Shown: positions 59,336 to 64,000 of the stretch, in pieces
Position numbering within the stretch: position 1 is the stretch's first letter
How the letters are laid out: the number at the start of each line of letters is the position of its first letter
Assembly (NCBI GenBank): GCA_965242925.1
Contig: CBDEUM010000004.1
Span: 79,031 to 143,030 of the forward strand
Origin: Roseibacillus sp.
GTDB taxonomy: Bacteria; Verrucomicrobiota; Verrucomicrobiia; Verrucomicrobiales; Akkermansiaceae
Direction of reading: 5' to 3'
Length of the DNA stretch: 64,000 nt
Position numbers and translations under genes: made by a program
Notes under the pieces: model-generated
Seen by the model: only the letters and a program-made list of their open reading frames with translations
What the model was told of the DNA's origin: nothing
Database searches by the model: none

Positions 59336-59834
59336 GGCGCTTCAGTCTGTTGTTCTCTTAACCGTAAAACGATTGAGGCGATTTTTTTATTCAGTTGGGC
59401 CTCCTCGCTGTAGTTGAAAAACAGGGAAGACAGGGGTCGTCTGGGTAATACGCTACACCATTGTCTTTGGCGTGCTACCCGCCCATGCGTCTTTTTCCGG
59501 GAAAATTGCAAAAAGGGATTCATCTCCAGTGGCGTCCGCAGTTTCTTTCCTGCCTGGATCAACATTACGTGAGTTGTCCTGCTTCCCTAACAACCGGTAT
59601 ATACCCCTCCAGAGGTATCGTCCCTGCCTGTGAGGAAGTTTAACGGGATTGGAAACTCCAGCCTAAATCAGGATGGTCGCGGGAGGAAGGGTGTCGCCGC
59701 TTCAGACAACCGGGGGCAGGCTCATTCCGGGGGCTTTTCCTGCGCTTTCCGTCGGACCTCCCTCGCCCGGCATTCTGAGATCGGGCCGGTCTTTCTCGAT
59801 CGCGGGGGAAGGGATGGATAGGCTGCTCTCACCA

Positions 59835-61550
59835 ATGATGAGAATACTCCTTCTAGCGCTTATAACCTGCTGCCCCATGTCCTTATCGGCGGCCCGGCCC
59901 AACGTGCTGTTCATTGCGATCGATGACTTGAATGACTGGGTTGGCTGCATGGGTGGTCATCCCCAGTCCCGGACACCAAACCTGGATCGATTGGCCGCTT
60001 CGGGAGTGCTCTTTACGAATGCGCACTGTCCCGCGCCGGCGTGCAATCCGTCGCGTTCTGCGATTTTCACGGGCATTTCCCCCCATCGGTCGGGTCTTTA
60101 CCGCAATGGGCAGAAGATGCGCCAGGTCCTCCCTGCAGCCGAGTTGTTGCCCAGAACCTTTTCCCTGGCAGGCTATTGGTCGGCGGGATCCGGCAAGATG
60201 CTGCATTACTTCATCGATGCGCAGTCGTGGGATGAATACTTCCCGGAAAAAAAGACGGAGAATCCCTTTCCGCGCACCTTGTATCCCGAACAACGGCCGG
60301 TGAGCCTCCCGCGGGGAGGGCCCTGGCAGTATATTGAGACCGACTGGGGACCCCTGGATGCCAGTGATGAGGAGTATGGCGGGGACTATCTTGTCTCGGA
60401 ATGGATCGGCAAACAGTTGCGCAGGAAACATGACAAACCCTTCTTCCTGGCCTGTGGAATCTACCGTCCGCACGAACCCTGGTTTGTTCCGAAGAAATAC
60501 TTCGACGCGTTCCCCCTTGAGGAAATCCGTTTGCCGCCAGGATACCGGGAAGACGACCTTGATGATCTGCCTGCTGAAGGCAAACGGATGGGACCTAACC
60601 GTTACTTCGCCCATATCCGCGGTCAAAAACAGTGGAGAAGGGCGGTGCAGGGTTACCTGGCCTCCATCTATTTTGCCGACACCATGCTGGGACGCGTCCT
60701 GGAGGCACTCGAGCAAGGGCCGAATGCCAAGGACACCATCGTGGTGCTGTGGTCTGATCATGGTTGGCACCTGGGCGAAAAACAGCATTGGCAGAAATTC
60801 ACCGCGTGGCGGGCCTGCTCCCGGGTGCCATTGATCATGCGGGTGCCCCCGGGAACGCCCGGCTTATCCAAAGGCACATCCCCCGGGTCCTGCTCCCAGC
60901 CGGTGAGTTTGCTGAGTCTGGCGCCGACTCTGCTCGAATTGGCCGGGCTTCCACCGGTGGATGATCACGACGGACCCAGTCTGATCCCCCTGCTGCTTGA
61001 TCCGAAGGCAGATTGGCCCCACACGGCGGTAACGCACCTCGATGCACCCGGCAGTTATGGGTTGAGTGCCGCAAAGTGGCGCTACATTCATTATGCCGGG
61101 GGCGGAGAGGAGCTCTATGAGATTGAGACGGACCCCTACGAATGGAGGAACCTGGCGAATGAGGCAGCGCACTTGCCCACCTTGAAACGGCTGCGTGCAC
61201 TCGCTCCGAAAAAGTTCGCAGAGTTGGTTCAACCGAAGGTGGAATCCCTGCCGGCACTGAAATGGGCGCCGTTGCCTGACGGGGGAAAGGCACCTCCATC
61301 AAAACCTGATGGAAATCCCTTTGATGTGGTCTTCATCAACAACAGCACCCGTCAAGTCGATCTCCTGTGGATGGATCGAACCGGTGGCACCAGGGACTAC
61401 GGAGCGATTGCTCCTGGTGGACGAATTCGCCAACAAACGCGTCCCGGTGCGATGTGGATGATTGCCACGACCGAAGGGAAGAAGAGGAGGAATCTCGGCT
61501 TCTTTGAAGTCGGGGATCGTGCGGCCCGGGCAGTGGTGCCGGGGAAGTAG
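59835..61550 (+). CDS. Sulfatase (iduronate/choline sulfatase-like) with C-terminal VHL-beta-like domain
   Basis: PNVLFIAIDDL, CNPSR, GK..H, RPH.P and SDHG.HLGEK motifs; tail FINNS...V.L.W.D..G...YG...PG....QQT..G..W. Confidence 0.88.
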   Translation: MMRILLLALITCCPMSLSAARPNVLFIAIDDLNDWVGCMGGHPQSRTPNLDRLAASGVLFTNAHCPAPACNPSRSAIFTGISPHRSGLYRNGQKMRQVLPAAELLPRTFSLAGYWSAGSGKMLHYFIDAQSWDEYFPEKKTENPFPRTLYPEQRPVSLPRGGPWQYIETDWGPLDASDEEYGGDYLVSEWIGKQLRRKHDKPFFLACGIYRPHEPWFVPKKYFDAFPLEEIRLPPGYREDDLDDLPAEGKRMGPNRYFAHIRGQKQWRRAVQGYLASIYFADTMLGRVLEALEQGPNAKDTIVVLWSDHGWHLGEKQHWQKFTAWRACSRVPLIMRVPPGTPGLSKGTSPGSCSQPVSLLSLAPTLLELAGLPPVDDHDGPSLIPLLLDPKADWPHTAVTHLDAPGSYGLSAAKWRYIHYAGGGEELYEIETDPYEWRNLANEAAHLPTLKRLRALAPKKFAELVQPKVESLPALKWAPLPDGGKAPPSKPDGNPFDVVFINNSTRQVDLLWMDRTGGTRDYGAIAPGGRIRQQTRPGAMWMIATTEGKKRRNLGFFEVGDRAARAVVPGK

Positions 61551-61639: not shown

Positions 61640-61712
<73 letters not shown>

Positions 61713-61945
61713 CCTTTTAGCTGCAACGAGTTACGCGGATTTAGGGTGACGCCGATTTCACCCAACGTGCCCCTAACGTGCCCTTACGTTTTTCGGTAGC
61801 TCCATCCAAGGGGCCATGGGCGAGAATAACGCTAACTGCCCTATTAAATCCCTGTTTTTTGAGGGCACAGAAAACCCCCGGAGCGCGGCAGCGGAAATGA
61901 ACCGCCACGCCGCCGGGGGCGTATCTGTATGTCCCGCAAAAATGT

Positions 61946-62476
61946 TTAGGCCGTGATCCAGAGGTCGCTGAGCCACTTGAGCACCCCGCGCCGGGGGGCC
62001 TGGAGGGTCATGTCCTCTGACAGATCCTCCAAATTCTTCTTCCGCTGGAGGATGTTGATTACCTTCGGCGACCTGGTGATGGGGATACCCAACTCGTTGG
62101 CCTCGGCCCGCTCTTTTTCCTCAGTCGCCTCAGCCAGTTCCCCGGCAGCCACTGCGGCCTTCGCGACAATGGGCTGAAGCAGGGGGCAGGTCACCTCCTG
62201 CCGGATCTTCTTGCCGAGGGCGTTGAGCATGTTCACGGAGCCGTCCCTGTAGGCTTCCGCGCGGGGGGCGTCGGCCACGTGAGCGCCGTAAGCGTCGGCG
62301 GCCTCGATGGCGGCATGGACGTCGTCAGCGCAATGGCACGCCCTGCTCAGTTCCCCCTTCTTCTCCACCCATTCCGCCCGGTCATACTTCCGGGCAGCGT
62401 CTGTGATGGCGGTGAGTTGGTCCTCTAGGACCCCGATTTTCTTCAGCTCGCCGGCTGTGAGTTTGAGTAATTTCAT
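61946..62476 (-). CDS. Hypothetical helical protein of the element
   Basis: 176-aa ORF whose ATG overlaps the upstream stop (ATGA). Confidence 0.65.
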   Translation of the reverse strand: MKLLKLTAGELKKIGVLEDQLTAITDAARKYDRAEWVEKKGELSRACHCADDVHAAIEAADAYGAHVADAPRAEAYRDGSVNMLNALGKKIRQEVTCPLLQPIVAKAAVAAGELAEATEEKERAEANELGIPITRSPKVINILQRKKNLEDLSEDMTLQAPRRGVLKWLSDLWITA

Positions 62477-62835
62477 TTGAATACTTGTGGAAATTTTTTT
62501 CTGAATTCGATGCGCCTTTCGGCTGCACCGCTTTCGGACATGTCGATCTGCCGATACAGTGAAATGACTGCGGCCTTCCCTGCCTCGATATCCCCAGGCG
62601 TAGCTTCCCGCTCATACAGATCCGGGGAACCTCGCTTGAGCTTTCTCCGCTCCGAATCACTGGCTAGTGCGGCCATTCCGATGGCGGTCGCGATGGGCAC
62701 CTTTAGGGCAGCGTATTCTTTGTGGTAGATGCGCGAATGAAGCTCCAAGCACGTTTCGAGGAGTTGGCTGCGCGACTTCCCCCGCAGCTCGCTTATGAAC
62801 TCTTTGCGCGATGAATTAGCTGTGATGGTTCTCAT
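62473..62835 (-). CDS. Hypothetical protein of the element
   Basis: MRTITANSSRKEFISEL...; ATG 62835 overlaps the 3' end of the upstream gene. Confidence 0.6.
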   Translation of the reverse strand: MRTITANSSRKEFISELRGKSRSQLLETCLELHSRIYHKEYAALKVPIATAIGMAALASDSERRKLKRGSPDLYEREATPGDIEAGKAAVISLYRQIDMSESGAAERRIEFRKKFPQVFK

Positions 62836-63040
62836 GGCAGATAAAATTGATTCTTCGTTGCAGGTCCGACCGGGTGGCAGCGTCGAGCAGCAAGGCGAGA
62901 AGTGGCCCAAGCTGTGACCCGTGCTCCCGGAGCCAGTCGAGCAGCGCGTCGGGGCTTTCAATCGGCGCACCTTGCGACCGCAACACCCGGAGGCGTTGGC
63001 CCGAAACACCGTAGACGCTGGCTAATTCTTCAGAGGTCAT
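62816..63040 (-). CDS. Small HTH protein (Nu1/excisionase-like winged HTH)
   Basis: TSEELASVYGVSGQRLRVLRSQGAP...LLDW pattern. Confidence 0.55.
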   Translation of the reverse strand: MTSEELASVYGVSGQRLRVLRSQGAPIESPDALLDWLREHGSQLGPLLALLLDAATRSDLQRRINFICHENHHS

Positions 63041-63126
63041 TCGCAACGAAAGAAGTATAGGTCGCGTGCTCCTGGGGCCAACCCCAATATTGTTTAAACT
63101 GATGTTTTCTAGTCTAACATTGATTC

Positions 63127-63375
63127 ATGGAATTGACCCTACGGGAGATCGCCAGTTGCTATGAGATGAGCCCACCCGCGCTTCTTCGATACCGGCAGAG
63201 GGGCGTTGATCTGATGGACCCGCAGGCAGTGGTGGATTCGATGGTGCGGGGTGATCGACCCTCGCCGGTCTGCGATCAGATCCGTGGGCGGTTGACCCCC
63301 ATCAGGCGGGAGTTGACGAAAGCCGTGATGCGGAAGGGTGGAGATCCAGAGGTATTCGGCCTGGACCGGATCTAG
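63127..63375 (+). CDS. Small HTH protein, divergent and apparently paralogous
   Basis: TLREIASCYEMSPPALLRYRQRGVDL.DP pattern. Confidence 0.55.
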   Translation: MELTLREIASCYEMSPPALLRYRQRGVDLMDPQAVVDSMVRGDRPSPVCDQIRGRLTPIRRELTKAVMRKGGDPEVFGLDRI

Positions 63376-63376
63376 T

Positions 63377-63491
63377 GATCAAAACCCCACTTTTGGGGCT
63401 TTGCTCGGGCCGTGGTTTGAAAGGGCAAAAATGACCTTTCATGATGCCGGGGATCAAAAGGCCGAAATCGGACCTTTGCTCGGGCCGGGGT
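63377..63491. repeat. Array A: three imperfect 24-bp palindromes at a 37-38 bp period
   Basis: Palindromes at 63380-63403, 63418-63441 and 63455-63478 with GCCG(G/T)GG linkers. Confidence 0.75.
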
Positions 63492-63510
63492 CAGCGCACG
63501 CATCGCGCAC

Positions 63511-63749
63511 GCTCAAATGTTTCACGCGTGAAACATTTAGGACGTCCCTCTCGGAGAAGATGCGCACGCCTCGTCTATGCTCAGATGTATCGTCGACGAT
63601 ACATCTAGGACGGCCCTCTCGGAGTATATGCGCATGTATCACGCACGCTCAAATGTTTCCCCGGGGAAACATTTAGGACGTCCCTCTCGGAGAAGATTTC
63701 GCACGCCTCGAGCACGCTCAAATGTAACACGCGTGTTACATTTAGGACG
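63511..63749. repeat. Array B: four perfect, sequence-variable 24-bp palindromes at a 68-69 bp period
   Basis: Palindromes at 63515-38, 63583-606, 63651-74 and 63720-43, each flanked by GCTC and AGGACG. Confidence 0.95.
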
Positions 63750-63892
63750 GGCCGGGGTTTAAAGGTCATATTTATTACTTTTTCCGACTCCGGGGGATGC
63801 TCTACCACGGCAGGAAAAAAGAAGCCCGAGGTCCAGGACGAAAAAAGGGGTGTCAAAATGACACCTCAAAAACAGCAGACAAAATAGCGGAA

Positions 63893-64000
63893 GAGAAGTG
63901 GTCCCCACAATGGGGACCACTTGGAGAAGAGAAGTGGGGGCAACAATTGCCTCCACTTGCAGGAGAGAAGTGCGGGCCACAATGACCCGCACTTGGAGAC
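63893..64000. repeat. Array C: 36-bp units GAGAAGTG-N6-ACAAT-N6'-CACTTG-N5, at least three, reaching the window edge
   Basis: Units start at 63893, 63929 and 63965; N6 and N6' are complementary. Confidence 0.92.

Follow-up and report, generated by a model that had tools for sequence, protein, structure and literature searches.

Tandem hairpin families with covarying stems downstream of a small gene in a putative tRNA-integrating element of Roseibacillus sp.

What are the closely packed hairpins that occupy the last 624 nt of a contig from Roseibacillus sp., and what could keep their stems paired while the sequences change? The DNA analysed here, referred to as the window, is a stretch of 64,000 nt (positions 79,031–143,030 of contig C4, CBDEUM010000004.1) from a 4.58-Mb genome assembly that is 89.9% complete, and the contig stops at window base 64000. 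The hairpin arrays follow a gene for a protein of 82 amino acids (aa), in a region that appears to belong to a mobile element integrated at a tRNA gene. A preliminary description of this DNA had counted at least 12 palindromic cassettes within about 620 bp after that gene, and all 12 are present where it placed them; one hypothesis it offered was a library of sites for proteins of helper phages. As the best explanation, which we hold tentatively, we propose that the arrays are a duplicating, non-coding stem-loop module located at a transcript-end or insulator position and kept paired in single-stranded form. The window was compared with related DNA loci (L-numbers), of which 11 metagenome loci encode the 82-aa protein (L014–L024), and with contigs of sequencing runs X1, X5 and X19. 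Parts of the window stretch occur in runs of seawater or marine metagenomes, which come from 14 studies.

The arrays begin 2 nt past the stop codon of the 82-aa gene and run to the contig end, with 12 hairpin or palindromic units that fall into three families, A to C (63377–64000; Table 1). Array C is incomplete, because window and contig stop at the same base. Five perfect stems of at least 8 bp, each 12 bp long, are found in these 624 nt, to be compared with a mean of 0.064 and a maximum of 2 in 500 dinucleotide shuffles, which served as chance model, and with a mean of 0.088 and a maximum of 2 in 102 other 624-nt tiles of the window, which served as second control. A genome-wide scan (perfect stem of at least 9, loop of at most 6) returned 280 perfect hairpins, and array B is the sole cluster of three or more. 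Chance is excluded as the source of this hairpin density. Folding is also much more stable than that of shuffled sequence, with z about −6.2 for both strands. Loops measure 0–4 nt, or up to 6 nt in two outlying units, and the sequence between hairpins is near-constant within each family. The linkers of 9–11 nt that flank the hairpins are purine-rich on the plus strand (AGGA 7 times, TCCT 0 times), and each B unit carries one AGGACG. A stretch of lower G+C content (0.40) and strong A skew at 63720–63900 has arrays on both sides. It includes the degenerate A-type unit, whose non-palindromic core CATATTTATTAC is found again within A-type flanks in L016 and L018; at the position of the lone hairpin, L023 has a different hairpin after the common TCCAGGACGAAAA. 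Run X1 contains an L014-like contig in which GTTAACCTCCAG comes after the array.

The property that the units conserve is structure. In alignments of units from the window and related loci (A, n = 10; B, n = 8, of which 7 are distinct; C, n = 5), 90.9% of the cells are paired in array A, 100% in array B, with a single G-U cell, and 96.7% in array C, and the base pairs that changed on both sides number 6 of 10, 7 of 12, and 6 of 12, respectively. The observed covariation score was reached by none of 500 shuffles in any family, and pairing collapses to 18–53% when the alignment registers are slid. The bases of the stems and the linkers are constant, and variation is confined to the upper 4–6 bp of the stems, so that the constant flanks and variable self-complementary cores of the preliminary description are borne out. 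The same behaviour is seen between close relatives. The window and an L014-type allele differ at 2 sites in the 249-nt gene and at 4 sites in palindrome B2, the latter forming two exact compensating pairs (63584/63605 and 63589/63600). On an identical C stem, the loop reads CAA in the window and TTG in L014, an inversion that is a DNA-level event.

Covariation of this kind bears on whether the region might be coding. The cassettes had been translated into short peptides (SNVSPGKHL and others) and likened to variable segments within phage DUF3102-like and ParB-like genes. The translations are correct, but there is no sign that the peptides are produced, and the proposed phage link found no counterpart: nucleotide searches (blastn) with the array gave no match among 50,697 phage and 72,556 plasmid records, the longest array reading frame gave a single match at E 0.5 by tblastn, none of seven array frames matched Pfam at E≤1, and the B period is not a multiple of three. 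One frame is open through the L014 array, as part of a 1038-aa open reading frame (ORF; L014:1446–4562) that extends from inside the 82-aa gene into a pectate-lyase gene. In the window the same frame closes at 63676, which makes it probable that the long frame is an artefact of repeats that are poor in stop codons. Moreover, with periods of 68/68/69 and about 38 nt the units change frame from one to the next, and the substitutions in stems are compensatory rather than synonymous. The 68/68/69 periods and the seven unmatched frames rule out the array as protein-coding, and a decayed or low-complexity protein-coding gene is hardly credible.

Comparison of the loci identifies the arrays as an optional insert. 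In six of the 11 loci (L017, L019, and L021–L024) there is no array; the 82-aa gene ends in TGT TAA within the sequence GTTAACC, and a conserved motif of about 90 nt follows directly. The other five (L014, L015, L016, L018, and L020) and the window carry, at exactly this point, an array of 270 to more than 620 nt, which lies between a CCGG and TGTTAACC and starts 2–20 nt past a new stop codon. The protein accordingly ends in GLDRI with an array and in GLPRC without one, and 13 aligned homologue clusters divide into six with GLDRI-type ends and seven with GLPRC ends. Cassette counterparts are thus present in related elements, but unit number and family differ between loci with near-identical genes: L014 has A units, three B units and two C units, L015 is arranged likewise, L016 has about eight A-type units and one B-type palindrome, and L020 holds a different family with stems of 14–16 bp. 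On the right side of the array, in L014/L015, L016, L020 and the contig of run X1, the 90-nt motif is followed by plus-strand cargo genes (pectate lyase, leucine-rich-repeat lipoprotein). The array-less loci retain the same gene set, and in L014 the array is kept in a remnant between ceramidase-like and pectate-lyase genes. The module is optional and dispensable. It is also hypervariable, and its presence explains why assemblies break at this point; all 15 close homologues of the adjacent 82-aa protein are on contigs of at most 4.3 kb.

Turnover of the units is evident from several alleles. Relative to the window, L018 is about 78% identical over the first ~170 nt of the gene and about 99% identical from ~63300 through array A, and one 12-nt core is replaced within identical flanks. 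From this mosaic identity and the swapped core it follows that the module moves between diverged elements by recombination and that units convert one another. In run X5, a single sample, three alternative continuations after the gene or the first units were found together with one contig matching the array of the window; given the low contig depths, this run shows presence only.

Based on these observations, the module would be positioned at a junction, where the transcript of the 82-aa regulator ends and the cargo region of the element starts. It would gain and lose units through duplication, through gene conversion from one unit to another, and through recombination between elements. Pairing in the stems would be maintained either because selection acts on the single-stranded form, be it RNA or single-stranded DNA, or because that form undergoes templated correction. 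If the module is functional, a cis-acting terminator or insulator combined with a structure protecting the 3' end, between the regulator gene and the next promoter, seems the most likely role. We infer transcription, strand and function of the arrays; weak hints for the plus strand are eight G-T against four independent A-C mismatches in the stems, the purine-rich linkers, A-tracts on the 5' side and T-tracts on the 3' side of stems, and the terminator-like character of the lone hairpin on the minus strand.

The module would in function resemble the repetitive extragenic palindromic sequences and bacterial interspersed mosaic elements (REP/BIME) of enterobacteria, which are dispersed in hundreds of copies, keep their stem sequences conserved and go together with RAYT transposases. 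In both cases short stem-loops form mosaic tandem clusters with conserved linker motifs, located just after stop codons in intergenic space that is transcribed or, for the arrays, presumably so, and by analogy a transcript-end structure is likely to be the shared role. Unlike REP/BIME, the arrays occupy one locus of one element only and their stems vary; in place of many dispersed copies of a conserved palindrome, the genome has the one locus.

Several points weigh against the proposed transcript-end role. The only RNA contig with a match, from run X19, spans 62800–63021, and none lies over the arrays; run X3 yielded no aligned contig. Within the array region, the consensus for terminators is matched only on the minus strand, at 63865–63849 and, as a minor site, at 63837–63825, and the A, B and C units fail it, with T runs of 3–4. 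Twelve hairpins far exceed what termination would need. Fold scores do not tell the two strands apart, and the difference in mismatch counts is not significant. The fully paired array B and the CAA/TTG inversion fit DNA-level templated correction or symmetric DNA recognition as well as they fit selection on RNA. The left part of the array is highly conserved between elements that have diverged, which hints at a benefit that a mere terminator would hardly confer. The locus is a clean natural case of structure-only conservation, in which near-identical strains differ by perfectly compensating changes. The module concerned is non-coding, optional and recombining, and it belongs to a mobile element of a marine lineage, the Roseibacillus-like Verrucomicrobia, that is abundant but has been little studied. 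If it only marks a transcript end, it would show how hairpin repeats arise and keep their pairing at a single locus; if it is cargo with a function, the accessory repertoire of small integrative elements would gain a non-coding class.

Because the module is optional, hypervariable and horizontally exchanged, and heads a variable cargo region, it might alternatively be RNA cargo that acts in trans from the promoter of the regulator gene, as a decoy or sponge for a hairpin-recognising factor of the host or a helper, or as a guide-like array. Single-stranded purine-rich linkers between stable hairpins would suit such a role, but these linkers are near-constant and hence not spacers, the arrays have no Rfam match (the window region and five related loci were searched), the RNA contig ends short of them, and no CsrA, Cas1 or Nop-domain match was found in the genome, which is 89.9% complete. 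We consider this reading unlikely. Slightly less likely still is a related proposal, in which an expressed, exchangeable RNA or single-stranded DNA cargo carries its specificity in the variable hairpin tops on constant scaffolds, as a set of decoys or as recognition tags for helpers or competitors, and owes its diversity to conflict. A CsrA sponge was rejected since no CsrA was found in the genome, and an RNA anti-CRISPR since neither Cas1 nor CRISPR arrays were found there; in addition, CRISPR arrays do not have self-complementary stems as their variable parts.

Arrays of tandem interspaced guide RNAs (TIGR) with variable palindromic stems can be sources of guide RNA; each unit has two unpaired variable spacers of 8–12 nt with box C/D, inside a palindromic stem, and a gene for a Nop-domain protein, Tas, lies alongside (PMC12045711; bioRxiv 10.64898/2026.09.09.750476). 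Among the published arrays considered, TIGR stem-loop arrays are the nearest with palindromic stems that vary between units. Both kinds are tandem arrays on mobile elements, with palindromic stems that vary from unit to unit and constant short motifs, and the 36-nt period of array C equals the length of a dual-repeat tigRNA. The differences are the short loops and the near-constant linkers, and no Tas-like gene was recognised beside the arrays in L014, L016 and L020. The best E-value for the Pfam Nop model in the genome was at least 0.8, a model from which Tas is remote, and the L014 array is flanked by the 82-aa and pectate-lyase genes. A TIGR array was rejected, as the defining unpaired dual spacers are absent. 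In search listings of literature on tandem hairpins, phage satellites and Roseibacillus mobile elements, no such array was found described, the Extended Data of the TIGR preprint and the TIGRSafari catalogue being outside the comparison. The arrays differ also from ToxI-like arrays of type III toxin-antitoxin systems, which consist of near-identical repeats of about 36 nt with a ToxN-family gene. Here the stems differ, and array C of L014 is followed by the 90-nt motif and pectate lyase.

The library of helper-protein sites in the preliminary description corresponds to a DNA collection of binding or loading sites (pac, oriT, or ParB-type) from diverse helper phages or conjugative elements. The loci seen of this element are without capsid or transfer genes, which makes helper dependence probable, and a language-model lead for the 82-aa protein, described below, is a helix-turn-helix (HTH) of the small-terminase type. 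A constant flank with a variable hairpin is also the logic of oriT mimics. Palindrome B1 resembles a chromosomal parS consensus, with two extra central bases; a genome scan bearing on this likeness gave only one near-parS site. No counterpart was found in phages, plasmids, viral contigs or the genomes of relatives, however, the cores within a family are close variants and not unrelated captures, and half of the related elements are devoid of the module. Covariance models of the three families (R1–R3) found no copy outside the locus in the genome under study or in its relatives (100 for R1, 40 each for R2 and R3), and pattern and covariance searches together confine the copies in the genome to C4:142401–143029. 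Beyond the training units there were two weak matches, one of which (genome G002) proved on inspection to be coding sequence, the other (G046) having E 0.02. The B-flank pattern had no match in viral contigs, and a 19-mer A-linker pattern gave 44 single matches among genome contigs, of which the two inspected (L055 and L056, from related phyla) were chance occurrences inside coding sequence. A site library is therefore improbable to a marked degree.

Table 1. Features at the right end of the window (window positions; strand where assigned).
Feature	Position	Strand	Basis or remark
tRNA-Met (CAT), integration-side flank	61640..61714	+	ARAGORN; Rfam tRNA 75 bits
GC-rich stem-loop, tRNA-proximal conserved island end, just past the 3' end of the 176-aa gene	61875..61919	.	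read from sequence
176-aa ORF, helical, without known family	61946..62476	-	syntenic homologues in L016–L019 and L021–L023 at 29–46% identity
121-aa ORF, without known family	62473..62838	-	homologues of 35–81% identity in 9 loci (L016–L019, L021–L024, L009)
76-aa HTH-like gene, leftward regulator of the divergent pair	62816..63046	-	26 homologues; best PHROG lead small terminase, E 0.093 (weak)
Divergent promoter/operator region between 76-aa and 82-aa genes	63047..63126	.	conservation relative to L018
82-aa HTH-like gene	63127..63375	+	last three codons of the array-bearing haplotype (GLDRI* vs GLPRC*)
Array A, three hairpins, two alternating subtypes, linkers ending GCCGGGG or GCCGTGG	63377..63493	+	
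A hairpins	63377-63406, 63418-63441, 63455-63478		
Array B, four units of 68/68/69 nt, one perfect 24-nt palindrome each	63494..63766	+	
B palindromes	63515-63538, 63583-63606, 63651-63674, 63720-63743		
Degenerate A-type unit, non-palindromic core CATATTTATTAC, lower-G+C stretch	63761..63782	+	
Lone hairpin, intrinsic-terminator-like (stem, then T run)	63847..63867	-	terminator scan
Array C, three 36-nt units, 12-bp stems, 3-nt loops, cut by contig end	63887..64000	+	
C hairpins	63896-63922, 63932-63958, 63968-63994		

The assignment of the region to a mobile element comes from its relatives. The block of four small genes to the left of the arrays is syntenic in L016–L019 and L021–L023, and partly in L024, and adjoins tRNA-Met in the window and tRNA-Ser in L019, while two of its genes adjoin tRNA-Leu in L009. 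In L023 the block is joined to a tyrosine integrase (E 7.9e-14), an AAA_25 ATPase (E 1.8e-13) and a DnaG-like primase with Zn-ribbon and Toprim domains; the AAA_25 ATPase is found also in L024. L023 contains two related copies in tandem, with 78% identity, and between them an apparent partial tRNA can be seen by eye, although ARAGORN calls none there. The preliminary proposal of a tRNA-integrated element agrees well with these findings, and judged from the gene content of relatives the region is probably part of such an element, whose own integrase and attR would lie beyond the contig end. With regard to primase-helicase islands, integrase, AAA_25 and primase are seen only in L023/L024, and three tRNAs flank the block. 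The right-junction motif was not found in the genome, and a search there for the tRNA 3' end as a candidate attR gave a tRNA-Arg gene as the best look-alike. Contig C23 was considered as a continuation of C4 and rejected.

The genes of L023 and L024 bring in a further possibility, that the hairpins are accessory to a replication origin, as structure-specific loading or priming sites (similar to single-strand initiation, ssi, sites) or as iteron-bearing units for the AAA_25 helicase and the DnaG-like primase. Hairpin priming signals are established for DnaG-type primases, the AAA_25 and primase genes of related elements are convergent with the 82-aa gene, and the A-skewed stretch of lower G+C content lies between arrays. 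The AGGACG of each B unit may be compared with GGACGG-type repeats and TCCGTGGA half-sites by the AAA_25 stop codon in L023 and L024. However, the six array-less loci have the same genes, the arrays of L014, L016 and L020 abut the 90-nt motif and plus-strand cargo genes and not a rep gene, and since stems differ between units, no single sequence-specific initiator fits them. An origin function is therefore doubtful. Iteron origins, such as those of phage-inducible chromosomal islands and Staphylococcus aureus pathogenicity islands (PICI/SaPI) or of RSF1010 type, consist of direct repeats of one sequence next to a rep gene and are indispensable. The likeness lies in repeats on either side of a stretch of lower G+C and in the primase and helicase-like AAA_25 ATPase of the element, and the AGGACG in each B unit fits as well; in contrast, the units here vary in sequence, are present in only 5 of 11 loci and abut cargo genes. 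Integron attC sites share conservation of structure over sequence, a tyrosine-recombinase element and an adjoining variable cassette region. They are imperfect structures of 57–141 nt with extrahelical bases and RYYYAAC/GTTRRRY cores, each after an ORF, whereas the hairpins here are near-perfect, 22–27 nt long and without ORFs between units, and only the right junction GTTAACC is loosely like GTTRRRY.

Side by side with the AAA_25 stop codon, the TCCGTGGA half-site forms an inverted repeat at L023:5555–5577 and a direct repeat at L024:1540–1565, with GGACGG-type repeats nearby. From their sequence these look like protein-binding sites, and possibly they constitute the true origin. Islets that share the tRNA-proximal GC-rich stem-loop of the element follow other tRNA genes (Ser, SeC, Phe, Leu), at C4:67099–67384 (L012) and C30:304501–304615 (L013) in the genome under study and in genomes G012 (L007), G014 (L008) and G008 (L010). 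The 5' part of the stem-loop, a 27-nt motif with up to three substitutions, was located at C4:67351, adjoining tRNA-Ser, and at C30:304516, after tRNA-SeC. Islets L012 and L007 also keep the last 48 codons of the 176-aa gene, with 79–83% protein identity. The islets suggest that the same element family has integrated and decayed repeatedly.

Profile searches with the four small ORFs gave no Pfam or PHROG match better than E 0.07. For the 82-aa protein, the AlphaFold2 (AF2) model has six helices and a mean predicted local distance difference test (pLDDT) score of 90.3, and structure searches of the PDB returned no significant match; the model of the 176-aa protein (pLDDT 78.7) likewise had no PDB match at E≤0.001. 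The 82-aa family forms one 50%-identity cluster among 1.84 billion representatives. It has no match in the genome contig collection, one weak partial match in viral contigs, none in 400 other genomes of the order, and one weak match in 19 genomes of the genus. The small genes had been described as HTH genes, which is plausible but weakly shown: an Atlas language-model lead to Terminase_5/HTH_23 clusters (0.85, a lead only) and a MerR_1 match below the cut-off, on a distant partial homologue, point to it for the 82-aa protein. One of the 26 homologues of the 76-aa protein is labelled Roseibacillus sp. in its source. The contig of run X19 (oligo-dT RNA-seq) covers the 76-aa gene as found in a relative (16 differences), and may stem from DNA carry-over.

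The two HTH-like proteins raise the question of whether the palindromes are extra or decoy operators for them in double-stranded DNA. The B palindromes have the form ATGT(T/A)-N10-(A/T)ACAT and, without loops, suit dimeric binders, and the divergent promoter region contains ATGTT-N9-AACAT (63100–63126), a resemblance that is possibly due to chance. The two spacings are unequal by one base and arms of 5 bp often arise by chance, several proteins would be required for three or more unrelated families whose cores differ, and units of the A, C and L020 types have unpaired loops. Furthermore, the window and L014 encode an identical 82-aa protein but have different palindromes. The operator explanation is accordingly improbable, and a transcript-end module remains the reading that we prefer. 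The stretch just upstream of the 82-aa gene is mostly well conserved, whereas the coding parts of L018 diverge, and one sigma-70-like site was predicted in the divergent promoter region, on the minus strand.

In all related loci, the 82-aa gene or the arrays are followed by the ~90-nt motif (L014:1949–2060), which reads GTTAACC, TTTTACATTTTT and CCGTAGGGTTCCCGTG in this order with intervening sequence. It allows alternative CCGCTG/CAGCGG pairings, and its core recurs in the genome at C23:12790–12877 and at C30:305637–305705 and 342103–342191. From its sequence, the motif may be a promoter or leader. Small lipoprotein-like genes whose signal peptides are almost identical are preceded by another motif, GCTTGCC..CTGCGCC.GGGG, with GGTAGG and ATG after it. 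Copies of this motif are found in the genome at C30:305702–327839 (five), on C23 (three) and at C34:309366, as well as in L019 and L020, and the lipoprotein-like genes form cassette-like series in the cargo region of the element and elsewhere. Upstream of the tRNA, a 625-aa ORF (window 59673–61550) contains, by eye, a sulfatase-like CxPxR motif.

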